In this document: positions 8,929 to 59,935 of the stretch, piece after piece
Layout: the number at the start of each line of letters is the position of its first letter
How positions within the stretch are numbered: the first letter of the stretch is position 1
Source: Escherichia phage vB_EcoM-Ro121c4YLVW
Direction: 5' to 3' (one strand)
Sequence record: NC_052654.1
Length of the DNA stretch: 64,000 bases
Notes under the pieces: model-generated
What the model was told of the DNA's origin: nothing
What the model saw: only the letters and a program-made list of their open reading frames with translations
Database searches by the model: none
Program-made: the position numbers and the translations under genes

Positions 8929-8936
8929 TTTTACTC

Positions 8937-18044: not shown

Positions 18045-18066
18045 AAAAAACCCCGCCGAAGCGAGG
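18045..18066 (-). terminator. intrinsic terminator
   Basis: minus-sense CCTCGC-TTCG-GCGGGG followed by TTTTTT, downstream of tape measure gene. Confidence 0.6.
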
Positions 18067-18073
18067 TATTTTA

Positions 18074-33756: not shown

Positions 33757-33835
33757 TGGAGGCGGGAATCGGATTTGAACCGATGATCTCCAGCATATGA
33801 AACTGGCGAGGACGACCAGACTCCTCTATCCCGCT
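33757..33835 (-). tRNA. tRNA-Met (anticodon CAT)
   Basis: hand-folded cloverleaf; loop TTCATAT; T-arm ATCGG-TTCAAAT-CCGAT; CCA encoded; ends approximate. Confidence 0.7.
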
Positions 33836-33841
33836 ATTATG

Positions 33842-33913
33842 TATCCCGTGCTGGATTCGAACCAGCATCACAATAAGCTGTGGAACTCTTATCCTGTAAG
33901 TCTAACGGGAAAC
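33842..33913 (-). pseudogene. degenerate tRNA-like element
   Basis: canonical T-arm GCTGG-TTCGAAT-CCAGC and pairing acceptor strands but too short; no canonical anticodon arm; no CCA. Confidence 0.3.
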
Positions 33914-33987
33914 TGGTTGTTTCGACAAGAATCGAACTTGTGTCTCACGATTATCAGTCGTGGGTTCTACCATTGAACTACGAAACA
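33914..33987 (-). tRNA. tRNA-Ile (anticodon GAT)
   Basis: acceptor TGTTTCG/CGAAACA; stem CACGA/TCGTG; loop CTGATAA; CCA encoded. Confidence 0.8.
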
Positions 33988-33993
33988 TTTAAT

Positions 33994-34070
33994 TGGTCGG
34001 GACGGAGTGATTCGAACACTCGACCTCTCGCTCCCAAAGCGAGCGCACTACCAAGCTGTGCTACGTCCCG
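33994..34070 (-). tRNA. tRNA-Pro (anticodon TGG)
   Basis: acceptor CGGGACG/CGTCCCG; stem CTCGC/GCGAG; loop TTTGGGA; CCA encoded. Confidence 0.85.
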
Positions 34071-34163
34071 TGATAACATTCTAAAGGTACACCGCAAAAG
34101 AAAGTGTTCGGCGGCTCCTCGTTTTTAACTTCACACTTAAGGTAGTGACTCACCTTTGTTATA

Positions 34164-34239
34164 TGGCTGGTCTGTCTGGATTTGAACCAAACCTACGACA
34201 GTCAAAGTGTCGTGTGCTACCGGACTACACTACAAACCA
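34164..34239 (-). tRNA. tRNA-Gln (anticodon TTG)
   Basis: U1-A72 acceptor; stem CGACA/TGTCG; loop CTTTGAC; CCA encoded. Confidence 0.8.
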
Positions 34240-34337
34240 ATAAATCATTTAATGAAGGGCAACCAGAAGAAGTGTGAGAGAAGGAGAAAACCATGAGTAA
34301 AAGAGAAAGTTTTCTGGCAACCCTTTATTAAATAATT

Positions 34338-34411
34338 TGGAGCGTTCTACGAGGATCGAACTCGTGCCGCCGACTTGGAAGGACGGAATGCTACCGCTAC
34401 ACCAAGAACGC
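34338..34411 (-). tRNA. tRNA-Gly (anticodon TCC)
   Basis: acceptor GCGTTCT/AGAACGC; loop CTTCCAA; T-arm ACGAG-TTCGATC-CTCGT; U73; one stem mismatch. Confidence 0.65.
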
Positions 34412-34422
34412 CATATATATTT

Positions 34423-34452
34423 ACTATACTACATTTTACTATTTGTTGTCAA
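34423..34452 (-). promoter_or_regulatory. sigma70-like promoter inside tRNA cluster
   Basis: minus-sense TTGACA, 18 nt, TATAGT just upstream of tRNA-Gly 5' end. Confidence 0.5.
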
Positions 34453-34725
34453 GACTTTTATTGATTGGGACAGTGACGAGTATCCCGTTGGGTGACTAGC
34501 CCTACGTTCGGTAAGCTAACTTAAAATAATACAAAACCAAAGTCAAATATTATTCTTCGTTGCTGTCGATGGGAGAGCCGCTTCTCATTTTGCCCCATCC
34601 AACCCTACTCCGGTCAAGTTTCGGGTGACTCTTTTTGTGATCAACACAATACTAAGAACACTGTCTTTCGAGCAGACCTTGTGCACAGGATACGACGATC
34701 AATCACAGTGCTCTTAATGTTGTGT

Positions 34726-34800
34726 TGGTGCTCCCACACTGAATCGAACAGAGATCCACGGATTACAAAACCGTTGTAATAGCCATTATACTATAGGAGC
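34726..34800 (-). tRNA. tRNA-Thr (anticodon TGT)
   Basis: acceptor GCTCCTA/TGGGAGC; loop TTTGTAA; CCA encoded. Confidence 0.7.
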
Positions 34801-34806
34801 AATGCT

Positions 34807-34884
34807 GGGACTCGGCAGGATTCGATACCTGCAATTCCAGAAGCCTATTGGCGACTGGGGGGTTTACCTTAACTCTACAAGTCC
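34807..34884 (-). pseudogene. degenerate tRNA-like element
   Basis: pairing acceptor strands and T-arm-like GCAGG-TATCGAAT-CCTGC (8 nt loop) but no anticodon arm; no CCA. Confidence 0.3.
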
Positions 34885-34891
34885 ATAATTC

Positions 34892-34977
34892 TGGCGATGA
34901 GTATAGGATTCGAACCTATATTGTTCTTTCGAACACGGATTAACAGTCCGCCGCTTAAACCATTCAGCCAACTCATC
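34892..34977 (-). tRNA. tRNA with Asn anticodon arm (GTT) and long type-II variable arm
   Basis: 86 nt; acceptor GATGAGT/ACTCATC; arm GCGGA-CTGTTAA-TCCGT; extra arm GTTC-GAAA-GAAC; G73; CCA encoded. Confidence 0.6.
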
Positions 34978-34983
34978 TTAATT

Positions 34984-35071
34984 TGGTGGTGAGTGATGGA
35001 GTCGAACCACCCGAATCGCAATGATAACAGATTTACAGTCTGCCCCGCTACCCCTACGGAATTAACTCACC
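34984..35071 (-). tRNA. tRNA-Tyr (anticodon GTA)
   Basis: 88 nt type II; acceptor GGTGAGT/ACTCACC; loop CTGTAAA; A73; CCA encoded. Confidence 0.8.
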
Positions 35072-35201
35072 TAAATACTAATATTTAAATTCTTTTTAAA
35101 ATAGCCAGTGTTCACACCACTAACTATGAGGTATCGGTAAAGTGGTTACCGCCACTTGCCGAAGATTTACTCTGCTAAAGTAAGCTACATTAAAAAGAAC
35201 T

Positions 35202-35287
35202 TGGCGGTAGATGTAGGACTCGAACCTACACGCCGTTTCCGACTACAGTTTAGCAAACTGTCGTGGCTACCATTTCACCAATCTACC
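35202..35287 (-). tRNA. tRNA-Ser (anticodon GCT)
   Basis: 86 nt type II; acceptor GGTAGAT/ATCTACC; loop TTGCTAA; CCA encoded. Confidence 0.85.
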
Positions 35288-35292
35288 TAATC

Positions 35293-35383
35293 TGGCGGAA
35301 GGAGGGAGAGTCGAACTCCCAAGGCTCTTTCAAGCTCGGCGGTTTTCAAGACCGTTTTCGTCGCCACATCGATTTGCCCTTCC
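35293..35383 (-). tRNA. tRNA-Ser (anticodon TGA)
   Basis: 91 nt type II; loop CTTGAAA; T-arm GGGAG-TTCGACT-CTCCC; CCA encoded. Confidence 0.85.
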
Positions 35384-35391
35384 ATACTTAT

Positions 35392-35421
35392 AATCTAACA
35401 TAAAATAATGTTTGTTGTCAA
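35392..35421 (-). promoter_or_regulatory. sigma70-like promoter inside tRNA cluster
   Basis: minus-sense ATTGACAA then TTAGATT about 17 nt later, just upstream of tRNA-Ser(TGA). Confidence 0.45.
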
Positions 35422-35627
35422 TAGTTTTTTAAAACATTTTACCATGAATGGTGACTCCACCAACCCCCGTTCTCCACGAACGGTGCTCTTCGAGCATTTA
35501 TGTCTTCTAATATAACCGTGGCCTTTGTTTATAATGTCTGACATACTTGCCTCATTCTCTGCCACCATGATCAGTAGTGGGTTCAAATCACTTGAGCTAA
35601 TTCATGTTAAAATGTTCTGGTGTCTTT

Positions 35628-35702
35628 ACAAGGAATCGAACCTTGACTAAGAGTTTAGAAGACTCCTGTGCTATCCATTACACCATAAAGACTTTGGTGG
35701 CC
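35628..35702 (-). tRNA. tRNA-Arg (anticodon TCT)
   Basis: acceptor GTCTTTA/TAAAGAC; loop CTTCTAA; CCA encoded. Confidence 0.8.
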
Positions 35703-35704
35703 CT

Positions 35705-35779
35705 GGCTGGTTTCGATCCAGCTACCTATCGGTTATGAGCCGACAGCTCTCCCATTGAGCTACAGGGCCATAAATGTGG
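35705..35779 (-). tRNA. tRNA with CAT anticodon, tRNA-Ile2 (lysidine) -like
   Basis: acceptor GGCCCTG/CAGGGCC; loop CTCATAA; resembles E. coli tRNA-Ile2 as recalled; CCA encoded. Confidence 0.75.
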
Positions 35780-39045: not shown

Positions 39046-39512
39046 GAATTAAAGTAACTAAAGCTTACGATGATAACCCGAAGTTTATCTCTTTGAATAA
39101 GAGTTATGGTGTCGAAAACGGCGATGAGTTCGAGGTTATCGATCTTTTTGAGGACCACGGTTATATTGTCAAAGCCCCAATCACAGAGCAGGCTATTATC
39201 ATCTTACGCACAGAGGCTGTTGAGGTAGGTTCTGATGAGCCTCAATATGACAGCCCATACATGACAGAGTGGATCGTAGCTGTGGATGTTGGAGGTATGG
39301 TTTCTGTACTGAAGGCTCCTAATCTCCATCCTAGTTTTACAGAGAACGGTAAGACAGCTTTGGATTATGGGTTGCCAGAAGATGTTGAGAATACACCGCC
39401 AGGTATGTACCGTTGGATTTGCTCTTTCCATGAAGAGAAGGATTGGGAATCAGGGCTTGTTGATGATTGGCATTTTGAAGTGGAAAGTTCTTTTTTAATC
39501 ATGCCAGCTTAA
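39042..39512 (+). CDS. hypothetical acidic protein
   Basis: 156 aa ORF, Asp/Glu-rich. Confidence 0.5.
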   Translation: MRIKVTKAYDDNPKFISLNKSYGVENGDEFEVIDLFEDHGYIVKAPITEQAIIILRTEAVEVGSDEPQYDSPYMTEWIVAVDVGGMVSVLKAPNLHPSFTENGKTALDYGLPEDVENTPPGMYRWICSFHEEKDWESGLVDDWHFEVESSFLIMPA

Positions 39513-39522
39513 AGGAGGTTAT

Positions 39523-39867
39523 ATGAAAGTTTGGATAGATGATATGCGGAACCCAGCCGACTATGGACAGGAGGATGCAATTTGGTTTAAAACGTCACAA
39601 GAAGCTATGGCCTTTCTCAACGATCCTGCTAAACTGTATCGAAGAGTAACCGAGTGGTCTTTTGACAATGATTTAGGTATGGAGTCAGACCAAGATGGGT
39701 ATGATGTTTTCCTGTACCTGGAAGAACTTCTGGCGTTTGGTAAACCTTGCTTTGGTTCACCCACCATTTTCGTGCATACTTCTAATCCCGCCGCTGGGGA
39801 TAAATTCATGCTTGCAAAAGAATCTATGCTGCGTTATGGTATTAAAATGATTCGTGTGCACTACTAA
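39523..39867 (+). CDS. hypothetical early protein
   Basis: 114 aa ORF with SD AGGAGG. Confidence 0.5.
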   Translation: MKVWIDDMRNPADYGQEDAIWFKTSQEAMAFLNDPAKLYRRVTEWSFDNDLGMESDQDGYDVFLYLEELLAFGKPCFGSPTIFVHTSNPAAGDKFMLAKESMLRYGIKMIRVHY

Positions 39868-40026
39868 GGAGAGAACATGCATCATTCGGTTTGGTCGGAA
39901 CAAGAAGAGGACGAAGGTTACTTTATCTACCGAGAAGAAGAGGATTGGCCCGACACAAGTAATGATCTTTTACTTCCAGACACTAGTTTTTTCGAGGATA
40001 ACTTAAGAGAGGAGGATTAGGAAACA

Positions 40027-40383
40027 ATGAGTGGTATTGAAAACAATATTTGTTACCAACCTCTTACCTGGATGGGTGAGGGTCATTATGCGCAACGTGT
40101 TATCGTCTGTGCTGCAAATAAGTATATTTTGAATAATGGTGAAGAGTTAATTATTCCTTGTGTTCGACATGCAAATCCTGTACTATATGCACAGTTAAAC
40201 GTGTTGAAAGAAGCAGGTGTAATCAACAAAACTTTGTGCACACCAGATAATCAAGGCTTTATCGATCAGTATTACAATTGGTGGAGTCGTGCGGATGCTT
40301 ACATCATCGCGGAAAATGCTGACCAGATCGACCATGAGCGTAATGGTCACGACCATGAATTATTTAGCGAGGGATTATACTAA
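40027..40383 (+). CDS. hypothetical early protein
   Basis: 118 aa ORF. Confidence 0.5.
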   Translation: MSGIENNICYQPLTWMGEGHYAQRVIVCAANKYILNNGEELIIPCVRHANPVLYAQLNVLKEAGVINKTLCTPDNQGFIDQYYNWWSRADAYIIAENADQIDHERNGHDHELFSEGLY

Positions 40384-40934
40384 TGTTTATTACAAGCGAT
40401 TTGCATTTTATGCATAAACGTATTCGAGAGTTTGCTCCTGAATATCGTCCGTGGGAAGATATGGACCACATGACAGAAGCCTTGATCGAAGCATGGAACA
40501 AATGTGCTACTACTCCTGGTGTTAAGATGTGGCATTTGGGCGACTTCTGTTTCGGAACTGAAGAAGATACCCGTAAAATTGCTTCTCGTCTCCAAGGAGA
40601 TATCACCTACTGTGTTGGGAACCATGACTACAGCAAACACCGAGAAGTGCTTGCAGAGTATGGTGAAGTGGTGTATTATGACGAAGTGAAATATCAGAAG
40701 CTGTTCTTCGTCTTAAGTCATTACCCTATGGCCTCCTGGAATAAACAAGGTCGTGGATCAATCATGCTACACGGGCATTCCCACGGATCTTTCCCTGATG
40801 AAGCTTATGGTAAAATGTTAGATGTGGGTTGGGATGCACACGGAAAAATCTTGCATTTTGATGAGATAATTTCTATGATGAGTAAACGAGATATCGTGAC
40901 TGTAGACCATCACAAAATAATCAAAGGAGAGTAA
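40383..40934 (+). CDS. calcineurin-like metallophosphoesterase (putative 2',3'-phosphatase of RNA repair cassette)
   Basis: motifs HLGDFCFG, VGNHD, LHGHSHG; adjacent to ligase and kinase. Confidence 0.7.
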   Translation: MFITSDLHFMHKRIREFAPEYRPWEDMDHMTEALIEAWNKCATTPGVKMWHLGDFCFGTEEDTRKIASRLQGDITYCVGNHDYSKHREVLAEYGEVVYYDEVKYQKLFFVLSHYPMASWNKQGRGSIMLHGHSHGSFPDEAYGKMLDVGWDAHGKILHFDEIISMMSKRDIVTVDHHKIIKGE

Positions 40935-40935
40935 T

Positions 40936-41868
40936 GTGACTAAATTTAATTGCGACGATTTGGTTGAAAAAGGTTTAGTTCATAAGAAAACATATAAAGA
41001 AGGAGAGTATTCTGGTCTATCTGTTCTTAAGTATAAGAACAAAGTTTTCTGGGATAACTTATGGAGCATTGATTCTCGTCTTCTAGAATGTCGCGGAATC
41101 GTTGTTGATGCTGATGACAATGTTGTTATTTGGCCTTTCACTAAGATTTTTAATCGTTTTGAGAATGGCACAGATCTACCATTGGATGAACTTGTAGATG
41201 TGGTTCGTAAAGTAAATGGTTTTATGGCCTCTGTAGGTGTATATAAAGGTCAACTTATTGTATCGACAACAGGAAGCCTTGAATCAGATTTTGCAAGTAT
41301 TGCAAAGAATCGTATTGTTTCAGAGTGTGATGACATAGAACATTTCATCAAATGGACAGAGAGTGCAAAAGCAACTTTCCTTTTTGAAATCTGTGATCCT
41401 TCTGATCCGCATATTGTCGAAGAAGAACCAGGTGCATACTTAATTGGTGCCAGAATTCAAAATCCTGATGGGACAAGTTTTATGTTACCTGAAGGTGCTC
41501 TTGATGGAATTGCTTCTGTCACCAAATTTAAGCGTCCTGAAGTTCATCCAATGGTTAAGTTTTCAGATGTTGTTGAAATGTCTAAACATTGTAAACACGA
41601 AGGGTTTGTAGTTCGTGAAACAAACTATCCGTTCAACTTACTTTTAAAAATTAAATCACCACACTATCTTACTAAGAAGTTTCTTATGCGCGGTGGAGAT
41701 AAAAAGTGGGATCTGATTTGGGATAATCCAAAAAATGCCAAACAAATGGTTGACGAAGAATATTACGCTTTGTTAGAATGGATTCGAAATAATTTTACGA
41801 AGACTCAATGGGCTGCTTTAAATCAGCAAGAGCGACGTGAAAAAATCGAAAACTTTTTTGGAGGATAA
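40936..41868 (+). CDS. ATP-dependent ligase, RNA-ligase-like
   Basis: motif I KVNGFM (no Arg), III FLFEICD, IV EGFVVR, V LKIKS; GTG start with SD. Confidence 0.6.
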   Translation: MTKFNCDDLVEKGLVHKKTYKEGEYSGLSVLKYKNKVFWDNLWSIDSRLLECRGIVVDADDNVVIWPFTKIFNRFENGTDLPLDELVDVVRKVNGFMASVGVYKGQLIVSTTGSLESDFASIAKNRIVSECDDIEHFIKWTESAKATFLFEICDPSDPHIVEEEPGAYLIGARIQNPDGTSFMLPEGALDGIASVTKFKRPEVHPMVKFSDVVEMSKHCKHEGFVVRETNYPFNLLLKIKSPHYLTKKFLMRGGDKKWDLIWDNPKNAKQMVDEEYYALLEWIRNNFTKTQWAALNQQERREKIENFFGG

Positions 41869-42273
41869 ATGAAACAACTTATCATTTTACGTGGCGTTTC
41901 AGGTGCTGGTAAATCTACAGTAGCAGAAATTATTTCTGAAGGTTATTGGCCTATCTGTGAGGCAGATCAATATCATTACACAGAGAGTGGTGTTTACGAT
42001 TGGAAGCCAGAAAATGTAGGTAAAGCACACGCATGGTGTCAGGGTATTGTTCGTGATGCTATGGCATCTAATCTTAACAAGATTATTGTTTCTAATACTT
42101 CAACCACAGAGAAAGAACTTAAACCTTATCTAGCTCTTGCTGAAGAGTTTGGTTATCAAGTTATCTCTTTAATTGTTGAAAATAGGCACGGTAATGATTC
42201 AATTCACGAGGTTCCACAATATATCCGTGATCAGCAAGAGAAACGTCTTCGTGGTTCACTTAAACTTCAATAA
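41869..42273 (+). CDS. P-loop kinase, putative polynucleotide 5'-kinase
   Basis: Walker A GVSGAGKST; small kinase directly after ligase. Confidence 0.55.
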   Translation: MKQLIILRGVSGAGKSTVAEIISEGYWPICEADQYHYTESGVYDWKPENVGKAHAWCQGIVRDAMASNLNKIIVSNTSTTEKELKPYLALAEEFGYQVISLIVENRHGNDSIHEVPQYIRDQQEKRLRGSLKLQ

Positions 42274-42282
42274 GGAGAAATA

Positions 42283-42609
42283 ATGCAGATTTATACAGAT
42301 GATCGTAAATATGAGACAATTTTAGATGAAGATACTGGACGAATTACCGTTCTCCGTCACGGTGAAGAGTGGCGTGATGAAACGGGAGACAATTATATCT
42401 TGTCTCTGATTCATCTTATTGAACAAATGCGTGATGATTACGCTGAACTGCATTATGAAAATGAGGCTAATAAAGTAAAATTTGAAAATGAATTAGAAGA
42501 GAAAGAATCCGAAATGGTATATCTAAAAGAAGAGATCTCCCGTTTGGAGGAAGAGATTGATGCTCTTCAAGAAGAGATTTACGAACTCAACAACGAACTG
42601 AACGCTTAA
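42283..42609 (+). CDS. hypothetical acidic coiled-coil protein
   Basis: 108 aa, Glu-rich C-terminal heptads. Confidence 0.5.
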   Translation: MQIYTDDRKYETILDEDTGRITVLRHGEEWRDETGDNYILSLIHLIEQMRDDYAELHYENEANKVKFENELEEKESEMVYLKEEISRLEEEIDALQEEIYELNNELNA

Positions 42610-42618
42610 GGAGGGATT

Positions 42619-42810
42619 ATGAAAAAAGATATCGTTGTTGTTGGTTGGCTGACTTGCCCTTGTGGTAGTAATGACATAACTGTAAACACAGAGGGTGATA
42701 AAAATTATTTATTCTACGGGGATAAAATCACTTGCAATACCTGCGGACGTGTTGGTATTATAGAAACCGATGATTGTTGTGCTTTTGAATCTTGGGATGA
42801 AGAAGAATGA
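42619..42810 (+). CDS. small zinc-ribbon protein
   Basis: 63 aa with CPCG...CNTCG cysteine pairs. Confidence 0.5.
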   Translation: MKKDIVVVGWLTCPCGSNDITVNTEGDKNYLFYGDKITCNTCGRVGIIETDDCCAFESWDEEE

Positions 42811-43028
42811 GTACTGCATTTTATGTTCGTAGCGGAGACGAGGATTTTCTAGCTACTTTTGATGACGGTGATCTTGAAGATATGTATGAAGATATGCTTG
42901 ACTATGCCAAAGGGCAAGGTTTCACAAGCATTGATTATATGTTGGCAACATCTACAACGTTACTCGACGCAGATTTGGATGAAGTGTGTAACAGATTGAA
43001 AATTTCAGTTTTTAAATGGGAGGACTAA
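42807..43028 (+). CDS. small highly acidic protein
   Basis: 73 aa Asp/Glu-rich. Confidence 0.45.
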   Translation: MSTAFYVRSGDEDFLATFDDGDLEDMYEDMLDYAKGQGFTSIDYMLATSTTLLDADLDEVCNRLKISVFKWED

Positions 43029-44143
43029 TGCAACAAACAAATCAAACGCTGTATGGTAAAGATTCAAAAGGAAAACTTAAACAGTGGACAGTATATACAG
43101 ATGGTGCAGTTGTTACTGTAGCTCATGGAAGAGTAGGTGGAAAGATCACAGAAAAATCTTATACAGCAGAAGCAAAAAACATTGGTCGTTCCAATGAAAC
43201 AACACCGGAAGAACAAGCTGAACTTGAAGCTTTTGCCAAATGGACAAAACAGTTAAAGAATGGCTATTATAAAACAAAAGAAGAAGCTGAAAACCATGTT
43301 CCTTCCACACCAATGAAATGCCAGGATTATAAAGATTATCCTGAAAGGGTTGTGTTCCCTGGTTATGCACAATACAAACTGAACGGGTTACGTTCTATGA
43401 TTAACATGAAAGGGGAGTGTTTATCAAAAGCTGGGGAAGTGTATAACCTGCCACCTCATTGGAAAGGTATTCCAAACTTTATTAGTGAAGTTGTTGGTCA
43501 TCCTCTTGATGGTGAAGTGTTTGCTGGGTTAGGTGTCCTTAGTCTGCAACAAATTAACAGTGCTTGGAAGAAGCATAATGCAAATACACCTTTGCTGAAT
43601 TATTACGTATACGATATTCCAGTTCCAGGTCTACCGTTTGAAAAACGTGTTGATGCTCTTGCTGCTCTTAAGGCAGTAGTTGAAGATTATGGTCTTGACG
43701 AGCTTATTTGTGTAGTTCATACAGAGTATATTGAAAACCAAGAGCAGTTTGACGCTTTCTATGAAAAAGCTTTACTTGAGAAAGCTGAAGGTGTAGTATA
43801 TCGTAATGCTCACGGAGTTTACGAATTTGATAAACGTTCTTATGACGTTATTAAACGTAAGCCTCGCCACACCCTTGAAGTTAAAGTAACAAATTCAAAA
43901 AGCGATAAAAATGGCGATGGAGTGTTGACAGGTGAGATGGAAAATGGTAAAGTAGTCGAATTCTTAATGCGTAAAGATGCTCATGAGACTATCAATTATC
44001 GTAAAGCAGAGAATGCTTCTACCTTGATTAATCAGTTCGTTGAAATAGAGTATGAAGAATTTTCAGATGAAGGTATTCCAACAAAACCTGTTGGTGTTCG
44101 TATTCGAGAAATGATCCTAGGCACTTGGGAACCAGCAGAGTAA
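43028..44143 (+). CDS. ATP-dependent DNA ligase
   Basis: motif I KLNGLR, IV EGVVYR, V DVIKRK; ATG at 43028 with SD GGGAGG. Confidence 0.7.
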   Translation: MQQTNQTLYGKDSKGKLKQWTVYTDGAVVTVAHGRVGGKITEKSYTAEAKNIGRSNETTPEEQAELEAFAKWTKQLKNGYYKTKEEAENHVPSTPMKCQDYKDYPERVVFPGYAQYKLNGLRSMINMKGECLSKAGEVYNLPPHWKGIPNFISEVVGHPLDGEVFAGLGVLSLQQINSAWKKHNANTPLLNYYVYDIPVPGLPFEKRVDALAALKAVVEDYGLDELICVVHTEYIENQEQFDAFYEKALLEKAEGVVYRNAHGVYEFDKRSYDVIKRKPRHTLEVKVTNSKSDKNGDGVLTGEMENGKVVEFLMRKDAHETINYRKAENASTLINQFVEIEYEEFSDEGIPTKPVGVRIREMILGTWEPAE

Positions 44144-44152
44144 GGAGGAAAA

Positions 44153-44347
44153 ATGTTCTTAGCCATTTTAATCGTTTTCAGTGTACTTTCTTTTTATTGT
44201 ATGAATGCTTCGGAAAACTTTCCTAAGAATTCAAAGAAAAGAACCGTATGTGTTGTGATTGATTCATGTATGTCTGGAGTTGGGTATGCGGTAGTTTCTT
44301 GTTTCTTAGCTTATCATTGTTCAAAATACCTGGAGGCATTTTTATGA
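44153..44347 (+). CDS. small membrane protein
   Basis: 64 aa with hydrophobic helices. Confidence 0.45.
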   Translation: MFLAILIVFSVLSFYCMNASENFPKNSKKRTVCVVIDSCMSGVGYAVVSCFLAYHCSKYLEAFL

Positions 44348-44526
44348 TAATTTTAGCAACAATTCTTATGATGCTGATAGCAATTGCTATTGTAATTCTG
44401 GCATCTTTTCCAGCGGATAAATGGTATTTCAATATTCCACGTATGCTTGTTTTCGGTTTCGCAGGAATTTACATGGGTGAGACTGTAGTAAATATTAGCA
44501 ACTTTCTAGAAAGCTATTTTAAATAA
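44344..44526 (+). CDS. small membrane protein
   Basis: internal ATG (ATGA overlap); hydrophobic MIILATILMMLIAIAIVILA. Confidence 0.45.
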   Translation: MIILATILMMLIAIAIVILASFPADKWYFNIPRMLVFGFAGIYMGETVVNISNFLESYFK

Positions 44527-44535
44527 GGAGTTATA

Positions 44536-45261
44536 ATGATCGAGAATTTTTTTAAAGATATTAAGTTCGATACTGAATTTTTCAAAAATGCAGCGAAGCA
44601 CGTGATTGATTGGAATGCTAAAGCACGAGGTGGTGAACAACCTGAATTCACTCAAGAGCTATTTATGTCCCAAATCGGATTCGTTCGTGAAGAGCTTAAA
44701 GAGTATGAAACAGCCGCGAAAGTAAACGATCATGTAGAACTCTTGGATGCAGCAGCGGATATTTTTGTAGTATCCAGTTATCTGACCTACATGTTCTTTG
44801 GTGAAGAACATACGATGAATTTCTTGGACTATGCTGTAGGCGATGTTTTTACTCCAACTGTGTATACTGATTTTGATGCTTTGGAACAAACATTTACAGA
44901 GCCAGTTCAAATGGCACTAATGGCTGCTGGTATTATGCGTATGTCTCGTGACACTCTAATCCGTTCAAAATATCCAGAAAAGAAAGTTATTAAAGAGGTA
45001 TTGAAAAGTAATGATTCCAAGTATCCAACTAAACAACAGTTGCTGAAAACTTGGAAAACTTCGGATATCGATTCAGCCATTGCACAAGAATGCGCTGCAA
45101 TTGAAGAACGAAATGCCAATCGTCCAGAAGGGGCATACACTGGTGTTCATGCTGTTTATAATGAAAAACAGAAAGTGTATGTGTTCTTTGATGATAAAGG
45201 TAAGATCATGAAACCATCGACCTTTGTCAAACCTAATATTGCAGGTATTATTAACAAGTAA
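44536..45261 (+). CDS. hypothetical protein (possible MazG-like NTP pyrophosphohydrolase)
   Basis: 241 aa; acidic helices EELKEYE...ELLDAAAD; weak assignment. Confidence 0.5.
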   Translation: MIENFFKDIKFDTEFFKNAAKHVIDWNAKARGGEQPEFTQELFMSQIGFVREELKEYETAAKVNDHVELLDAAADIFVVSSYLTYMFFGEEHTMNFLDYAVGDVFTPTVYTDFDALEQTFTEPVQMALMAAGIMRMSRDTLIRSKYPEKKVIKEVLKSNDSKYPTKQQLLKTWKTSDIDSAIAQECAAIEERNANRPEGAYTGVHAVYNEKQKVYVFFDDKGKIMKPSTFVKPNIAGIINK

Positions 45262-48879: not shown

Positions 48880-49273
48880 TGCTTTTGATAATCAGGTTGA
48901 CGGTGATCACTACACAAAAATGGCAATGCAACCTATTGAACTAGCTTATTTGGTTGGTGGCACACCTTGTTTTTGCAAATTGGCAAAATACGCAACACGT
49001 ATTAAAGGTGAACGTCAGATTAACCTAGATAAAGCTATTCATTGTATTGAACTAGAAAGAACCCTTATGCAAAATAACACGTATATGGTTCGTGAAAATT
49101 ACCCATCTATGACAAATGCAGCTAAACATGATCAAGCTATGCTTCTTATTGATTTCTTCACAAAAGATCCTTTAATCCGAGTGGCACTGAAACACATGTA
49201 TAACTCTTCTTATGTAGATGCAGTTGAAGCTATTAAACAACTTAAGGAACGTATTAGTGGCGAGCAATACTAA
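48872..49273 (+). CDS. hypothetical protein
   Basis: 133 aa ORF. Confidence 0.5.
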   Translation: MSNAFDNQVDGDHYTKMAMQPIELAYLVGGTPCFCKLAKYATRIKGERQINLDKAIHCIELERTLMQNNTYMVRENYPSMTNAAKHDQAMLLIDFFTKDPLIRVALKHMYNSSYVDAVEAIKQLKERISGEQY

Positions 49274-49363
49274 ACAATATGGAGCAGGAGAAGTTTATAA
49301 AATATTCAACCGAAAAGGTGATAAACTTTTACTAACTTTGACTATTCCAGAAACAATGTGCAA

Positions 49364-49391
49364 GGCGGGGTTAGACCGCCTTTTGTTTTTT
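49364..49391 (+). terminator. intrinsic terminator
   Basis: GGCGG-GGTTAGA-CCGCC followed by TTTTGTTTTTT. Confidence 0.55.
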
Positions 49392-49461
49392 AAACACAAT
49401 ATCCCACCAGGGGAATATACAGCTAAAAAGGTGAGCAATATTGGCAGGTGAACCAAAAATA

Positions 49462-50016
49462 ATGTGGGGTGAAGGAACACCCTGGAAAACACAAGCTGAA
49501 TTTTATACTTATCTTAGGGGATGTTTTAGAAAAGCATGGATGAGACACCCTAATAAAATTAAGGTTATCAATGCAAGGCGTTTTAAAGTTGATCGAGTAG
49601 ATAAAGACGGCAATGTGATGATAGACAAGAAAACTGGAAAACCAAAACAAGTTTGGAATTGTGAGTGCGAAATATGTGGACATAGAGGAGGAATGAAAGA
49701 CTTCCAAGTGGATCATATTCACGCAGCAAAACAACTTCAATGTTTTGATGATATTCCTCTTTTTGTTTTCCGTTTAATCTATGTGAAAGAAGAAGATTTG
49801 CGAATGGTTTGTAAATTGTGCAACTCTATTCTTGCTTATGCAGACAAGCAAGGCATATCTTTTGAAGAAGCAAAAGCTGAAAAAGAAGCGATAGCTTTGT
49901 GTAGAGCTAAGAAAGATAAAGCGTGGCTGAAGAAGCGTAAAATAGAACCTGAAAGCACAGTAGCAAAACGCCGTAAACAAATAGTCAAAATCCTATTGCA
50001 GGAAATTGAAAGTTAG
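49462..50016 (+). CDS. Endonuclease VII-like Holliday junction resolvase
   Basis: CECEICGH, VDHIH, CKLCN arrangement as in T4 endo VII; ATG at 49462. Confidence 0.55.
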   Translation: MWGEGTPWKTQAEFYTYLRGCFRKAWMRHPNKIKVINARRFKVDRVDKDGNVMIDKKTGKPKQVWNCECEICGHRGGMKDFQVDHIHAAKQLQCFDDIPLFVFRLIYVKEEDLRMVCKLCNSILAYADKQGISFEEAKAEKEAIALCRAKKDKAWLKKRKIEPESTVAKRRKQIVKILLQEIES

Positions 50017-50052
50017 TATAAGATAACTATACTGAAAGAGAGAGGAGGTTTT

Positions 50053-50661
50053 ATGCAGATAGTATGTGATTGGGATTTAGTTGTGGCTCCATTAGATGTT
50101 GCTTGGTTAGAATGGTTGAATAAGATTAGTGGACTTGGTGTTAAGATAGATACATTCACAAAAAATGCAGACTATGATCTTACCAACTACTTTCCTGGTT
50201 TCAGGGAGGAGTTCAATATAGATCCTTACGGATTTCTGGATAATCCTCATCTCTATGATACAATGGGTTTTGTTCCAGGTATGCCAGATTTCTTAAAGTA
50301 TGTTTCAAGGAAAGGTAGCAATCTTTTGATCGCAAGTGTGACAAAAGGTGGTCACTTAAGTTCTAAACATAAGCATGTTTTAAGAACGTTAGATACGATT
50401 GATTTTAGCAAAGGATCTGGTAACGGCTTTTTTGCTACGAAAGAAAAATACTTATTGCCTTGTGATATAGCAATAGATGACAGGGCTGATAACCTACTAT
50501 ATTTTCCAGATGAAGTGGTTAAAATATATTTTAATACGCCTTATAAAGATAACCATCTAGAAGAACTAAAGAAAAAACCAAATGTTGTGATCACAGGTTT
50601 AGAAGATCAGTGGCTAACATGTTTGGATGTTTTTAACACTTTGAACAATTTTAAAAACTAA
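50053..50661 (+). CDS. HAD-family 5'-(deoxy)nucleotidase
   Basis: motif I VCDWDLVVA (DxD), motif IV IAIDDRADN. Confidence 0.5.
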   Translation: MQIVCDWDLVVAPLDVAWLEWLNKISGLGVKIDTFTKNADYDLTNYFPGFREEFNIDPYGFLDNPHLYDTMGFVPGMPDFLKYVSRKGSNLLIASVTKGGHLSSKHKHVLRTLDTIDFSKGSGNGFFATKEKYLLPCDIAIDDRADNLLYFPDEVVKIYFNTPYKDNHLEELKKKPNVVITGLEDQWLTCLDVFNTLNNFKN

Positions 50662-50670
50662 GGAGAAAAA

Positions 50671-51669
50671 ATGACAAAACAGATTTCGGCTAGTATTATT
50701 GCGCATTCCATCACTGAAGACGGAAAAGAGATTGTAACTTTCGAACTTGAATATCCACGTATTATTCATTCAGAACTGATGACTCACCGCCTGTTCAGTC
50801 GTAACGCTGCTTCTAGCCGTGCTATACCTGTTAAAACATTGATCGAAATGGTGCGAAATCAGCCTGCTCGTCCTTATCGTTTTGGGGCTAACCAACCTGG
50901 TATGCAGGACAAAGGTGTTGACCATGATGCTCTTATTGATGCAGGTTATACTGCTCAAGAGTGGTGGGATCTTGCCGCGCTTAGTGCAGCACGTTTTGCA
51001 GAAGAATTCTCTTTGGCAGGGTACCACAAACAAGTTGCAAACCGTCTTCTGGAACCTTTCCAACGAATTAAAACAGTTCTGACAGCAACAGAATATGAAA
51101 ATTTCTGGTGGCTACGTGATGACAAAGAAGCCGATCCTACTATCGAAGCTTTGGCTAAAGAGATGCACAAAGAGTATGAAGGATCTACACCAGAAGTGCT
51201 GAAACCAGGGCAATGGCACACACCTTATGTAGACCATTTCTATGATAGTATTGGCACAGAAGGTGACGATCATTTTGTTTTTGGTGGATACTACGTTCAA
51301 GATGAATCTGGAGAAGTTGTTGTGCTTACTTTGGAAGAAGCCAAAGCTATTTCAGCTTCGTGTTGTGCACAGGTTAGCTATCGTCGTTTAAATGCAACTA
51401 AAGATAAAGCTTTAGATATCTATGGTCGTTTGCTGACTGGGCGTAAGGTTCATGCTTCTCCGTTTGAACATCAAGCTACTCCAATGCAAGAAACATGCGA
51501 ACAATATGGAGAGAACTGTTTTGAAGATTTGTTTATCAATGCTCCTTGGGATTTTAACTCTTGGGAACCAGGTATTACCCATGTAGATCGTAATGGTAAG
51601 TTTTGGTCTGGCAATTTCAAAGGCTGGATTCAACATCGTCAACTTTTAACAAATCATACTAAATGGTGA
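50671..51669 (+). CDS. thyX: ThyX-like flavin-dependent thymidylate synthase (atypical)
   Basis: ThyX-like THR-x7-SSR where RHR-x7-S is expected; 332 aa, longer than typical ThyX. Confidence 0.5.
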   Translation: MTKQISASIIAHSITEDGKEIVTFELEYPRIIHSELMTHRLFSRNAASSRAIPVKTLIEMVRNQPARPYRFGANQPGMQDKGVDHDALIDAGYTAQEWWDLAALSAARFAEEFSLAGYHKQVANRLLEPFQRIKTVLTATEYENFWWLRDDKEADPTIEALAKEMHKEYEGSTPEVLKPGQWHTPYVDHFYDSIGTEGDDHFVFGGYYVQDESGEVVVLTLEEAKAISASCCAQVSYRRLNATKDKALDIYGRLLTGRKVHASPFEHQATPMQETCEQYGENCFEDLFINAPWDFNSWEPGITHVDRNGKFWSGNFKGWIQHRQLLTNHTKW

Positions 51670-51685
51670 TCTGTTTAAATAGTTA

Positions 51686-51713
51686 TTGACTTTAGTATTA
51701 GTTTTAGTATAAT
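51686..51713 (+). promoter_or_regulatory. sigma70-like promoter
   Basis: TTGACT, 16 nt, TATAAT; followed by 5' UTR hairpin at 51727-51746. Confidence 0.65.
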
Positions 51714-51767
51714 ATAGCACAATACTGGGAGGAGGTGAGTCCTCCCATTCAAAATGAAGGAGAAAAT

Positions 51768-52178
51768 ATGTCATTAGTAAATACTACAACTTGGGCTACC
51801 GTAAGCATGTCTACTGTAATGTCTACCCCTATCTGGAAACTAGAATCAAATAAACACAATGGCAATATCCCACACGAGAAACAAAATGCTGTTATTAGAG
51901 CGTCGCTTGTAATGCTGGGTATGGCTGAAGATTCACACTATTCTGTTGAGCGTAATGTGAATATCCGAAGCAATAACGATAAGCGAGTAGTGTTTGCAAA
52001 TACAACGCTTTTCACTTTCCCTGTTTCACCTAATTGTGGTTTTAAACGAATCTACCAAGAAAATGATATTTTTCATTTTGGTGATGAAGAATTTACAGGT
52101 TGGGGTGCGTCACATATTAAGATGGATGATTTCGGTAACTCTTATGATCCTGCGAAAGCAGATGATACTAATCAATGA
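51768..52178 (+). CDS. hypothetical protein
   Basis: ATG at 51768 preceded by AAGGAG; track GTG start at 51735 lies in UTR hairpin. Confidence 0.5.
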   Translation: MSLVNTTTWATVSMSTVMSTPIWKLESNKHNGNIPHEKQNAVIRASLVMLGMAEDSHYSVERNVNIRSNNDKRVVFANTTLFTFPVSPNCGFKRIYQENDIFHFGDEEFTGWGASHIKMDDFGNSYDPAKADDTNQ

Positions 52179-56656: not shown

Positions 56657-57649
56657 ATGCGCTATCTGGTAACAGGTGGTCTTGGTTTTATTGGGAGTGC
56701 CGTGGTGCGCTCTCTTTGTCAAGATCCTAATAACGAAGTTTTTGTCGTTGATAAGATGAGCTATGCAGCAGATATTGAGAATGTAGGCGATATCACTCAC
56801 GTTAAACTAAGCATGACAGATTTGGCAAACGAAGCCCAAGTAAAAAGTTTAGTAGTAGAGTGCAATCCCGATTTCATCATTCACTTAGCGGCAGAGAGTC
56901 ATGTGGATAATTCTATCAAGAATCCACGAGTTTTCATCGACTCCAATATTATTGGTACATACAATTTATTGGAAGCTGCAAGGCTCCTCCCAAAGAATAA
57001 ACTGAAGATGTTCGTACACGTCTCCACAGACGAAGTGTACGGCGATATGGCAGACTCTGGCGTTCCCTTTACCGAAGAGACAGCTTATGCCCCTTCAAGC
57101 CCATACAGTGCGTCTAAGGCAGCATCTGACCATCTTGTGAAAGCTTGGCACCGTACCTACGATTTGCCTGTTGTGATAACCAACTGCTCCAATAACTTTG
57201 GACCTTATCAACATCCAGAAAAGCTGATCCCAAAAATCATCACAAGTATTTTGACGAATAAAGAGATTCCGGTGTATGGTAAAGGCGATCAGGTGCGAGA
57301 CTGGCTTTTTGTTGAGGATCATGCGAGAGCTATTCTTCAAGTGGCAACAGGTGGAGAACCAGGCCAAACGTATAACGTTGGAACACGTAATCCCAAAACC
57401 AATATGGAGATCATCTATATGGTTTGTGACTACATGGATGCTGTACATCCAGAAGCAGGAACCTACCCTTCTTCCAACTTGATAACTTTTGTTGAAGATC
57501 GTAAAGGACATGACTTGCGTTATGAAATCAATCCTTCTAAGATAGAGTCTGAACTGGGTTGGAGTGCAAACTCTACATTTGAACAAGATCTCTACTCAAC
57601 GATTGAATGGTACTTAAACAACCCTCAATGGTGGAGTGAGAAGATTTAA
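56657..57649 (+). CDS. rmlB: dTDP-glucose 4,6-dehydratase
   Basis: Rossmann GGLGFIGS, catalytic YSASK; close to E. coli RmlB as recalled. Confidence 0.9.
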
Positions 57650-57657
57650 GGAGGGCT

Positions 57658-58536
57658 ATGAAAGGTATTATTTTGGCTGGAGGAAGTGGAACCCGCCTTC
57701 ATCCGGTAACACGCAGCGTGAGCAAGCAATTGCTCCCTGTGTATGACAAACCCATGATCTACTACCCTTTATCGGTATTGATGTTGGCTGACATTAAGGA
57801 TATCTTAATCATCACCACACCAGGCGATCAGGAAGACTTTGAGTATCTTCTCGGAGATGGGTCTATGTTTGGGATAAAACTCACTTACGCAATCCAATCC
57901 GAGCCACGAGGTCTTGCGGACGCTTTCATCATCGGTAAAGATTTTATCGGAGAAGACTCTGTTGCTCTTATTTTAGGTGACAACCTATTCTTCGGACAAA
58001 GCTTTGGTAAACTACTGATTAACGCCAGTGAGATGGTAGATGTTTGGGGCGGAGCTTGTATCTTCGGGTATTTGGTGAAAGATCCTGAACGATTCGGTGT
58101 GGTTGAATTTGGGAGTAATCGTCAAGCTATTTCTATTGAAGAGAAACCTGAAAATCCTAAATCAGATTACGCTGTCACAGGTTTGTATTTCTATGATAAC
58201 TCTGTTGTTCAACGTGCATTAGAAGTAACCCCTTCCGCGCGTGGAGAACTGGAGATCACAGATATCAATCGCAGCTACCTCGAAGACAGGAAGTTACAAG
58301 TGGAAGTTCTCGGACGAGGATTTACTTGGCTTGACACAGGAACACACGCCAGTCTGATGGAAGCTGGTCAATTCGTGCAGACTATTGAGAACCGGCAAGG
58401 ATTGAAGATTGCGTGCCTGGAAGAAATTGCTTTCAAAAAAGGGTGGATTTCTTTAGAGACTTTGGTGTATCATGGAAACTCACTGAAGAAAACAGAATAC
58501 GGGCAATACCTACTCAAATTAGCGGAGAGAAAATGA
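57658..58536 (+). CDS. rmlA: glucose-1-phosphate thymidylyltransferase
   Basis: N-terminal [16 protein letters not shown] signature. Confidence 0.9.
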
Positions 58537-59099
58537 AAGTAGAAAAAACAAAAATTGAAGGTGCGGTAATTATCAAACCAGACGTTTATAAAGATGATCG
58601 TGGTTTCTTTTTAGAAACATATAATGAACAAAAATACGAAGATATTATTGGTAGACAAACTTTCGTTCAAGATAACATGTCTAAATCAAACTTCGGTGTT
58701 TTGCGAGGAATGCACTTTCAAACAAATAATCCGCAAGGTAAGCTTGTTCGTTGTGTAAGTGGGGAAGTATTGGATTTCGCTGTAGACCTACGTAAAGATA
58801 GTCCTACTTACGGTGCTTGGGACGGTGTTGTTCTTCGTGCACGACACCATACACAGTTCTGGCTTCCACCTGGTTTGGCACATGGTTTTATAGTGTTGAG
58901 TATGGATGCTATCTTCGAATACAAATGCACAACTCCATACGACCCTTCCAGCGAACAAAGTTTACGTTGGGATGATCCTGATATAGGGATTGATTGGGGC
59001 TTCGATATGATTTTTGACGAAGATTTTAAACCTATCTTATCAACAAAAGATGCAATGGCTAAGTCTTTTCAACAGCTACGTAGCGAGGGTGTATGCTAA
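58533..59099 (+). CDS. rmlC: dTDP-4-dehydrorhamnose 3,5-epimerase
   Basis: [11 protein letters not shown] and LRGMHFQ motifs; ATG at 58533 overlaps rmlA stop. Confidence 0.85.
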
Positions 59100-59935
59100 C
59101 ATATCTGGTATTGGGCGGTAATGGACAACTGGGACAAGCTTTACGTAAAGTGGCTCCTTCAAATGTATCTTTAATTTATCCTAAAGAACGTGTAGATATT
59201 ACAAATTTTGAAGCTGTGCGAAACGCTATTGTTGAAGATTATGTAGATGGTGTTATTAATTGCGCTGCTTATACGGCTGTAGATAAAGCAGAACATGATT
59301 TTGCTACTGCTTTGGCTGTTAATTCCTACGGCCCTGCAAACATTGCAGCAGTGTGCAGTAAACTTAAAATTGATTTTGTGCATATTTCTACAGACTATAT
59401 TTTTAATTACTCTCATCCTATTTTTGAAGATACTACACCTAACCCAATAAACAATTATGGGTATACGAAAGAACTTGGTGAAAAAATGGTGCGAGGAGTT
59501 AACCCAAATGCATATATTATTCGAACAGCCTCGGTATATAGCGAATTTGGAAATAACTTTCTAAAAACCATGTTGTCTCGCTATAATGATGGACAACGTG
59601 ATTTTATTATTGTTGCTGATCAGTTCTCTTGTCCAACATATGCTCCAGATTTAGCAGAAGCTATTTTTGAAGTATTAAAAACAGGTTGGTCAAGGTCTGT
59701 TAAGACTTACCATTTTGCAGGAAGCCATCTTATTTCTTGGGCGGAGTTTGCGGAAAAGATCTTGACACAGATGCCAGAACCTGTTAAGATATCGGCGGTA
59801 TCAGCTTCAACCTATAATGCTCCAGCAGCACGTCCGGTGAAGTCACAATTAGTAACCAGTCACTATCTTACAAAATCAGATTTAAATAAAGGTATTGAAC
59901 GGTCTTTAGCAGTATTACTTAATAAGGAGAGGTAA
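59093..59935 (+). CDS. rmlD: dTDP-4-dehydrorhamnose reductase
   Basis: LVLGGNGQLGQAL and HISTDYIF motifs. Confidence 0.85.
   Translation: MLTYLVLGGNGQLGQALRKVAPSNVSLIYPKERVDITNFEAVRNAIVEDYVDGVINCAAYTAVDKAEHDFATALAVNSYGPANIAAVCSKLKIDFVHISTDYIFNYSHPIFEDTTPNPINNYGYTKELGEKMVRGVNPNAYIIRTASVYSEFGNNFLKTMLSRYNDGQRDFIIVADQFSCPTYAPDLAEAIFEVLKTGWSRSVKTYHFAGSHLISWAEFAEKILTQMPEPVKISAVSASTYNAPAARPVKSQLVTSHYLTKSDLNKGIERSLAVLLNKER

Follow-up and report, generated by a model that had tools for sequence, protein, structure and literature searches.

We propose that the window analyzed here, a 64,000-nucleotide stretch of DNA from Escherichia phage vB_EcoM-Ro121c4YLVW (NC_052654.1), encodes a phage RNA heal-and-seal repair module that is organized as separate polypeptides next to a tRNA cluster, a reading to which we assign a probability of roughly 0.72. 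The module most likely mends RNA, probably tRNA, that has been cut by host defense nucleases. In such a pathway a 134-amino acid (aa) Pnk-type kinase would phosphorylate the 5'-OH, a metallophosphoesterase, possibly together with the product of an upstream cREC gene, would open or remove the cyclic phosphate, and a ligase of the Rnl1/Trl1 clade would be adenylylated on K92, move the AMP to the 5'-phosphate and seal the break. This reading is supported by the family and fold assignments of the proteins, the conservation of their catalytic residues, the clustering of the genes, their matching genus distributions and the existence of ligase-kinase fusions; the enzymatic activities, the tRNA substrate, the phosphate isomer resulting from the healing step and the counter-defense role are what we infer. 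The genes at the heart of the proposal are:

39523-39867, plus strand: cREC protein, 114 aa (PF20274)
40383-40934, plus strand: binuclear metallophosphoesterase, 183 aa (PF00149, phrog_547), with a proposed role in 3'-end healing
40936-41868, plus strand: predicted ATP-dependent RNA ligase of the Rnl1/Trl1 clade, 310 aa, GTG start (PF09511, phrog_562), for sealing
41869-42273, plus strand: predicted Pnk-type P-loop polynucleotide 5'-kinase, 134 aa (PF13671 AAA_33, phrog_2071), for 5'-end healing

A first-pass annotation of the window had singled out a cassette of three tightly packed genes at 40383-42273. Open reading frames (ORFs) for three separate polypeptides of 183, 310 and 134 aa lie exactly there on the plus strand, with a single base separating the phosphoesterase and ligase reading frames and the kinase ATG following immediately on the ligase stop; all motifs quoted for them were found, and their residue numbering was verified by script. 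The three genes thus stand; the limit drawn around them does not, since the cREC gene also belongs to the unit.

Enzymes of the predicted repair cassette

Judged by its sequence, the 310-aa protein is an ATP-dependent RNA ligase of the Rnl1/Trl1 clade. It matches PF09511 (RNA_lig_T4_1) with an E-value of 5.9e-15 and 56.2 bits against a gathering threshold of 28.3, its residues 51-244 spanning the complete model (positions 1-227 of 227), and phrog_562 with E 1.9e-70. An adenylyltransferase domain (residues ~1-241) bearing the motifs KVNG (K92), FLFE (E151), EGFVVR (E222, G223) and LKIKS (K238, K240) is followed by a short helical C-terminal domain (242-307), and there is no OB domain. A profile of 26 family members recovers T4 Rnl1 (E 3e-10) across the whole nucleotidyltransferase domain. 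R53, K70, K92, G95, E151, E222, G223, K238 and K240 are invariant in these 26 proteins and F72 nearly so; they align with R54, K75, K99, G102, E159, E227, G228, K240, K242 and, in the case of F72, F77 of T4 Rnl1, residues which mutagenesis in the Shuman laboratory reportedly showed to be essential. The window ligase accordingly retains the N-terminal Arg, Lys and Phe (R53, K70, F72) that are specific to Rnl1. The absence of an Arg from motif I had been pointed out; the observation is correct, and it is no peculiarity, since KxxG is normal for the Rnl1/Trl1 group (T4 Rnl1 reads KEDG). Nor does the protein fall among DNA ligases with an OB domain, an outcome that had been named as one that would speak against RNA repair, and its candidacy as a second DNA ligase was rejected. 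At the same time its score of 25.3 bits on the T4 RnlA equivalog model (NCBIfam TIGR02308), whose cut-off is 242, indicates that it is not an orthologue of T4 RnlA.

The kinase matches PF13671 (AAA_33) with E 3.5e-10, phrog_2071 with E 4.2e-56 and phrog_505, which is labeled 'polynucleotide kinase', with E 1.2e-7. Its P-loop, G9-T17, reads GVSGAGKST (K15, S16). The best matches of a 27-member family profile in the PDB are Pnkp1 (E 7e-7), CthPnk (E 2e-5) and T4 Pnk (E 4e-5), together with kinase chains from Mucorales that are likely to be Trl1-type (overall range E 7e-7 to 7e-5); gluconate, adenylate and nucleoside kinases rank far lower. An AF2 model of the protein (pLDDT 89.9) yields a concordant picture, the top 21 Foldseek matches being T4 Pnk and CthPnk (TM 0.72-0.79, E 1e-6 to 3e-5). 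An invariant Asp, D33, aligns with the general-base Asp that follows strand 2 in these enzymes (T4 D35, CthPnk D38; the RDD motif of Pnkp1), and the nearly invariant H36 aligns with the basic residue three places further on, T4 R38. Based on these profile and model comparisons, we predict the protein to be a Pnk-type polynucleotide 5'-kinase. GenBank labels for its homologues vary between ATPase, dephospho-CoA kinase and polynucleotide kinase. We rejected its identification as a dNMP, nucleoside or dephospho-CoA kinase: matches of this kind are confined to the P-loop (residues 1-35 in the case of the dNMP-kinase PHROG), whereas the full-length profile and structure matches lead to Pnk enzymes. 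A placement among the nucleoside and dNMP kinases, which the first-pass annotation had regarded as fatal to its proposal, is therefore not what was found.

The phosphoesterase matches PF00149 with 24.9 bits against a cut-off of 21.5 and phrog_547 with E 6.5e-56, and displays the motifs HLGDFCFG, GNHD and GHSHG. The ligands of the binuclear metal center, D6, H8, D54, N80, H81, H113, H132 and H134, do not vary across seven phage lineages. Its nearest solved structure is Aquifex aq_1665 (1xm7; profile E 1e-18), with COG0622, GpdQ and Rv0805 weakly matched. We propose that it is a 3'-end healing enzyme, that is, a 2',3'-cyclic phosphodiesterase and/or a 2'/3'-phosphatase, on account of its gene neighborhood and the precedent of other binuclear metallophosphoesterases: CthPnkp and lambda phosphatase are both 2',3'-cyclic phosphodiesterases (PMC2190708).

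The cREC protein encoded upstream matches PF20274 with E 3.9e-17 (63.1 bits against a cut-off of 27) and is 59% identical to ORF83 of phage rV5, the gene directly after the rV5 ligase. The rV5 homologue shares the Rec-like acidic residues D6, D7, D48 and D50, as well as T86, S87 and K94; among the lineages checked, cREC occurs in rV5 and Phapecoctavirus only. By analogy with the role predicted for this family by Iyer et al. (PMC7824862, PMC9503650), it is predicted to be an accessory phosphoesterase acting on 2',3'-cyclic phosphates or ADPr>P.

Conserved neighborhoods and known repair systems

We then compared the loci around ligase homologues from seven other lineages by searching their ORFs with the window proteins (phmmer). 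All three core genes lie within a few kb of each other in six of them, namely rV5, PaP1, Vibrio phage Gary (T5-like Demerecviridae), Acinetobacter phage vB_AbaM_P1, phiPsa267 and Aeromonas phage 2L372X, with gene order and orientation varying among the six. Counting the window as the seventh, the phosphoesterase gene is beside the ligase and kinase genes or at most ~1 kb from them in every lineage, and the kinase gene is directly adjacent to the RNA ligase gene, rather than a DNA ligase gene, in six of the seven. In the remaining locus, that of Streptomyces phage BRock, phmmer found none of the three genes; its ligase gives a weak tblastn match to the window ligase (26% identity), and no Pnk-type kinase homologue was detected there. 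The BRock locus (6959-10399) has an Rnl1-type ligase that directly adjoins a tRNA array. A 401-aa 'metallo-dependent phosphatase' comes next, and a PRA-PH/MazG gene neighbors that of the phosphatase, two genes downstream from the ligase. The locus appears to be a different flavor of the module.

Across 50,697 phage records the ligase is present in 678 and the kinase in 621, and their counts run in parallel from genus to genus (ligase/kinase: Escherichia 197/196, Pseudomonas 175/173, Klebsiella 36/36, Acinetobacter 24/24, Aeromonas 13/13). Metagenomic proteins provide fusions of the same partners: ligase-kinase in P0479 and P0507, kinase-ligase in P0420, HD-kinase in P0399 and kinase-kinase-CNPase in P0487, the ligase halves matching the window ligase with E 1e-42 to 1e-65. 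These natural fusions argue that the kinase works with the ligase and with 2',3'-phosphoesterases. They are among the top hits of an exhaustive HMMER search with the kinase, which returned 9100 cluster representatives at E <= 1e-10.

The RNA-repair reading as such is not new; it belongs to a computationally predicted class and is already present in GenBank labels ('putative RNA ligase/RNA repair', 'metallophosphatase', 'putative polynucleotide kinase'). Iyer et al. 2021 (PMC7824862) defined cREC and linked it to RNA ligases, and Iyer et al. 2022 (Viruses 2022;14:1977, section 3.7.3; PMC9503650) described a neighborhood that has Escherichia phage V5 and Proteus phage Mydo as its prototypes and combines a T4-like tRNA ligase, cREC, a kinase, MazG, a calcineurin-like phosphoesterase and a sirtuin. 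They suggested for it a role in cleaning up 2',3'-cyclic phosphate ends, in which the sirtuin would act on 2'-phosphates in a KptA-like manner. The five families other than the sirtuin are all encoded at 39523-45261 in the window, by proteins homologous to rV5 ORF80-ORF83 and ORF85 (E 4e-15 to 7.5e-90), and in rV5, as in the window, a tRNA cluster lies a few kb upstream on the opposite strand. The two differ in that the window genes for phosphoesterase, ligase and kinase are collinear, whereas in rV5 the ligase gene is divergent from the other two, and in that the defining sirtuin is found neither in the window cassette nor elsewhere in the window. Pfam scans of the plus-strand ORFs at 37-63 kb recovered no sirtuin, Tpt1/KptA, 2H, Nudix, HD or Hen1 domain; tblastn with rV5 and PaP1 proteins found no sirtuin or HD partner in the window, the rV5 Sir2 query giving no match across the whole 64 kb and the PaP1 HD protein none in the window either. 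The window cassette is the Phapecoctavirus version of the rV5-type neighborhood with the sirtuin unlinked. In the Phapecoctavirus genome OR062526.1 a Sir2 gene occupies 17987-18787 and the cassette 49221-52021, ~31 kb apart; the Phapecoctavirus Sir2 is ~46% identical to the Sir2 of the rV5 repair cassette, and in phage PaulScherrer the Sir2 match region overlaps a gene labeled 'putative aminoacyl-tRNA synthetase'.

The cassette had previously been likened to T4 Pnkp plus Rnl1 and to bacterial Pnkp. With regard to function the likeness to the T4 pair holds: both comprise a phage-encoded 5'-kinase, a 3'-end healing enzyme and an Rnl1-clade ligase, activities that are predicted in the case of the window, and they have the kinase fold, the general-base Asp and the ligase catalytic residues in common. 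It does not extend to the phosphatase family, which is a binuclear metallophosphoesterase, as in bacterial Pnkp, rather than a HAD (DxDxT) enzyme, and the kinase and phosphatase, joined in T4 Pnkp, are separate proteins in the window. The T4 ligase possesses a C-terminal tRNA-specificity domain of ~120 aa, whereas the C-terminal domain of the window ligase measures ~65 aa; N94, H159 and R252 of the window ligase, discussed below, are lacking in T4 Rnl1, and the window ligase also lies below the T4 RnlA equivalog cut-off. Bacterial Pnkp/Hen1 and Pnkp1-Rnl-Hen1 likewise bring together a kinase of the Pnk type, a binuclear metallophosphoesterase and an ATP-dependent RNA ligase, and among PDB sequences it is Pnkp1 that the kinase family matches best. 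In contrast to these systems, no Hen1 was detected among the neighboring ORFs of the window (the plus-strand ORFs scanned at 37-63 kb contain no match to a methyltransferase family that would correspond to this 2'-O-methyltransferase), and no relationship in sequence could be detected between the phosphoesterase and the phosphatase domain of Pnkp. The components of Pnkp1-Rnl-Hen1 are separate polypeptides as well (PMC4411300). End-healing enzymes of the HD-Pnk type from Runella slithyformis have reportedly been characterized by the Shuman laboratory. A member of the window kinase family is similarly fused to an HD phosphohydrolase (P0399), and HD phosphohydrolase genes border the cluster of three genes in PaP1 and phiPsa267; the window itself yielded no protein with an HD domain.

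The one lead that is new in this analysis is a hint of a Trl1-like signature in the ligase sequence. Fungal Trl1 (LIG-KIN-CPD; Rnl6 clade) unites three activities that match those predicted for the window proteins, and its ligase ends in a distinctive C-module of five helices, the window ligase likewise appearing to have a short all-helical C-terminal domain; moreover, P0487 joins a member of the kinase family to a 2H phosphodiesterase of the CNPase type. Unlike the fused Trl1, the window proteins are separate, and their cyclic phosphodiesterase would be the metallophosphoesterase or cREC and not a 2H domain. According to the published Trl1 studies, the 2'-PO4 pocket of the fungal enzyme is formed by N150 (motif I Lys +2), H227 (motif III Glu +9), R334 and R337 (motif V Lys +9 and +12), and 2'-phosphate ends are not ligated by T4 Rnl1. 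The window ligase has N94 at motif I +2, H159 at motif III +8, and K248 and R252 at motif V +8 and +12, a correspondence drawn from motif spacing and not from structural superposition, as well as R227 at motif IV +5, as in Trl1. N94, H159, K248 and R252 are conserved in seven lineages of proteobacterial phages and in the fusion proteins, N94, H159 and R252 being invariant in the ligase clade. These residues are absent from T4 Rnl1, which has D, I/V and S instead, and from the BRock ligase, which is T4-like (KMDG, SNRIV); the ligase-family profiles reach T4 Rnl1 and not Trl1. In light of these residues we tentatively entertain the possibility, doubtful on balance, that this ligase clade performs Trl1-like sealing, using or tolerating a 3'-OH,2'-PO4 end and leaving a 2'-phosphate at the junction.

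If this were so, the genes would represent a disassembled Trl1, with the kinase corresponding to KIN, the metallophosphoesterase or cREC to CPD and the ligase to LIG, an arrangement that would fit the associations with cREC and sirtuins. The junction 2'-phosphate would then have to be removed by an NAD-dependent enzyme, for which phage Sir2 or the host Tpt1 homologue KptA are candidates. We know of no natural substrate of KptA in bacteria. Sir2 was proposed as a remover of 2'-phosphates by Iyer et al. 2022 (PMC9503650). A 2'-phosphate-dependent ligase would mean eukaryote-style tRNA-splicing chemistry in bacteriophages and would suggest a source of natural substrates for bacterial Tpt1/KptA and for phage sirtuins.

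Alternative readings and implications

Several observations weigh against RNA repair as the role of the cassette. The phosphoesterase is the weakest link and least secure step of the model. The profile search of the PDB with this family found neither CthPnkp nor lambda phosphatase, and its nearest solved relative, aq_1665, is without known function. The family is present in 1355 phage records, about twice as many as the ligase; it occurs without ligase and kinase in Staphylococcus phage K and Vibrio phage D411, and also in Listeria and Bacillus phage genera in which no ligase match was found. This wider spread and solo occurrence imply that the family is not dedicated to the module. In the kinase, the Walker-B-like Asp that ends strand 3 in T4 Pnk (D85) and CthPnk (D78) is not conserved: where CthPnk and Pnkp1 read D-A-T-N, the window protein has S75 and an invariant N76 (IIVSNTS), and the invariant E104 at the end of the following strand might stand in for the missing residue. 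Promoter and terminator scans of the window were no richer than those of shuffled sequence (32 versus 27.9 promoters; 7 versus 6.2 terminators), so that the operon structure is not established, and we found no published experiments on these proteins or the cassette in the literature on Phapecoctavirus, Stephanstirmvirinae and Vequintavirinae. Finally, a gene for an ATP-dependent DNA ligase is located within a few kb of the cassette in Phapecoctavirus, rV5, PaP1, phiPsa267, 2L372X and Acinetobacter phage P1.

The solo occurrence of the phosphoesterase in many phages would suit a division of labor in which this enzyme, cREC and the MazG-like protein degrade nucleotide or NAD/ADP-ribose-derived immune signals or by-products, and only the ligase and kinase act on RNA. 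Consistent with this, the clusters of PaP1, Gary, Acinetobacter phage P1 and phiPsa267 abut genes for ribose-phosphate pyrophosphokinase and nicotinamide phosphoribosyltransferase, similar genes being ~4 kb from the phosphoesterase gene of phage K, and Iyer et al. (PMC9503650) discuss ADPr>P as something that cREC, calcineurin-like and Nudix enzymes might process. Nevertheless, we regard this division as unlikely, given the constant proximity of the phosphoesterase to the ligase and kinase genes in all seven lineages and the fact that repair of a 2',3'-cyclic-phosphate break needs 3'-end healing, for which no other candidate is conserved in these neighborhoods. The nearby DNA ligase genes raise the prospect that the kinase and phosphoesterase instead clean 5'-OH and 3'-phosphate DNA ends for the DNA ligase, which is encoded 1 kb downstream in the window, the RNA ligase being incidental. 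Pnk-family kinases commonly accept DNA, and T4 Pnkp can act on it; furthermore, the phosphoesterase weakly matches PdeM, a ligase-associated DNA-damage endonuclease (E 0.0034). That match, at 16.8 bits against a threshold of 150, is far below significance, the kinase gene adjoins the RNA ligase gene and not the DNA ligase gene in six lineages, the fusion partners of the kinase are RNA ligase, HD and CNPase domains and, among those examined, never a DNA ligase, and the 15-kb locus of Vibrio phage Gary contains the three genes but no DNA ligase, all of which make DNA-end processing very improbable.

Routine processing of the phage's own RNAs, be it tRNA maturation or splicing or the repair of phage-inflicted cuts, would dispense with counter-defense altogether. 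The module is near a phage tRNA cluster in the window, rV5 and BRock, and its ligase resembles Trl1, a tRNA-splicing enzyme. Yet neither ARAGORN nor Rfam reports a tRNA intron, no tRNA is annotated in the 15-kb loci of PaP1, Gary and Acinetobacter phage P1, all of which carry the three genes, and the only experimentally established role of a phage Rnl1 and Pnk pair is the reversal of host anticodon-nuclease damage (T4 versus PrrC); we therefore consider such housekeeping quite improbable. A label carried by PHROG 562 and many GenBank records, 'RNA ligase and tail fiber protein attachment catalyst', might suggest that the ligase is mainly a non-catalytic tail-fiber attachment factor, the second function of T4 Rnl1 (gp63). 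The label is inherited from T4 RnlA, from whose equivalog model the window ligase is far removed (25.3 versus 242 bits), and is unsupported for it. The ligase gene has genes of replication and nucleotide metabolism as its surroundings, the apparent structural block, judged by ORF sizes alone, being on the opposite strand; the catalytic residues of its adenylyltransferase domain are all invariant, and it is fused to a kinase elsewhere. A tail-fiber role is accordingly hardly tenable.

RNA repair remains the explanation that we favor. Cleavage of tRNA is by now recognized as a widespread anti-phage strategy, employed by PrrC, RloC, Cas13a, PARIS, retron effectors and OLD. On the phage side, T4 Pnkp plus Rnl1 is the only repair answer that is understood experimentally. 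The cassette or its ligase-kinase core is found in more than 600 sequenced phage genomes, many of them therapy candidates, spread over Stephanstirmvirinae, Vequintavirinae, Pakpunavirus, T5-like vibriophages and phages of Acinetobacter and Aeromonas. If the module works as we propose, it would be a common determinant of host range against RNA-targeting defenses.

Genomic setting and neighboring genes

Positions 39500-42300 are 100% identical to Escherichia phages ESCO13 and vB_EcoM_Schickermooser and 95-100% identical to dozens of further genomes of Phapecoctavirus (Stephanstirmvirinae), and the window is thus from a Phapecoctavirus genome. The GC skew changes sign at ~36 kb; genes up to ~33 kb are on the minus strand, and a tightly packed plus-strand block from 37.2 kb onward encodes replication and nucleotide-metabolism functions (RdgC-like, RNase H-like, ThyX, ribonucleotide reductase, an NT5C-type nucleotidase and PhoH). 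The other features around the cassette are:

33757-35769, minus strand: tRNA cluster of 10-11 genes (10 by ARAGORN, 11 by Rfam), divergent from the cassette
40027-40383, plus strand: PF26092 (T4_Y16D) protein, 118 aa, a small gene between those for cREC and the phosphoesterase, unrelated to the cassette
42283-42609, plus strand: coiled-coil protein, 108 aa (phrog_18076), directly 3' of the kinase gene
42619-42810, plus strand: Cys-rich protein, 63 aa, labeled 'Lar family restriction alleviation' in phage SKA64
43028-44143, plus strand: ATP-dependent DNA ligase (KLNGLR; PF01068, phrog_114)
44536-45261, plus strand: MazG-like (PRA-PH) nucleotide pyrophosphohydrolase, 241 aa (PF01503, phrog_671)

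The tRNA genes noted near the cassette in the first-pass annotation are indeed present, the cluster being separated from the cREC gene by 3.75 kb and from that for the phosphoesterase by 4.6 kb. All are full-length matches; the eleventh (34987-35071, minus strand) scores 39 bits with Rfam against a gathering score of 29 and is not reported by ARAGORN. We treat the cluster as context, its members being possible substrates of the module or a parallel counter-measure. The Rfam scan for regulatory RNAs yielded tRNAs only. Equally, the DNA ligase that had been placed downstream of the cassette is real (PF01068, E 6e-9; phrog_114, E 5e-74).

The MazG-like protein (PF01503, E 2.7e-6; phrog_671, E 7.5e-29) is homologous to rV5 ORF85 (E 4e-15 and 3e-11), the neighbor of Sir2 in the cassette of that phage, and MazG-like proteins are listed within the rV5-type neighborhood (Iyer et al. 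2022, PMC9503650); tentatively, its gene is probably a downstream part of the module. The ORF at 40027-40383, whose stop codon overlaps the phosphoesterase ATG (TAATG) and thereby couples the two genes translationally, was considered as a further member of the cassette and rejected, having no RNA-repair neighbors elsewhere and no counterpart in the six other lineages. Its invariant residues, R47, H48, Q76, G77, F78, R88, S114 and E115, give it an enzyme-like look; no PDB relative was found for it. In a T4-like phage the gene for the homologue of this PF26092 protein is flanked by motA and asiA, so that the label 'anti-restriction nuclease' in GenBank was probably transferred by mistake from the arn region of T4. 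No Pfam assignment above threshold was obtained for the ORFs at 42283-42609 and 42619-42810; the 108-aa protein is labeled 'hol-like chemotaxis' and, in some records, mislabeled 'DNA polymerase I'.

The ribose-phosphate pyrophosphokinase and nicotinamide phosphoribosyltransferase genes that abut the repair genes of PaP1, Gary, Acinetobacter phage P1 and phiPsa267, and that have similar counterparts near the lone phosphoesterase of Staphylococcus phage K, presumably constitute an NAD+ reconstitution pathway. This adjacency suggests either an anti-defense island or a supply of NAD+ for the removal of 2'-phosphates. Four records named as Campylobacter phages, B15, C3, C9 and A147 (MG065650.1, MG065656.1, MG065661.1 and MG065644.1), are close to Phapecoctavirus, Justusliebigvirus or Vequintavirus of E. 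coli: B15 is 100% identical over the cassette DNA, C9 has a 99.6% match to the rV5 Sir2, and the A147 ligase groups with rV5-like ligases. These records are probably mislabeled or contaminant genomes. Farther along the window, at 56657-59935 on the plus strand, a complete dTDP-rhamnose pathway is encoded by RmlB-like (GDP_Man_Dehyd/Epimerase), RmlA-like (NTP_transferase), RmlC (dTDP_sugar_isom) and RmlD (RmlD_sub_bind) genes with E-values of 1e-66 to 1e-80, which could serve in the modification of DNA or of surface glycans.

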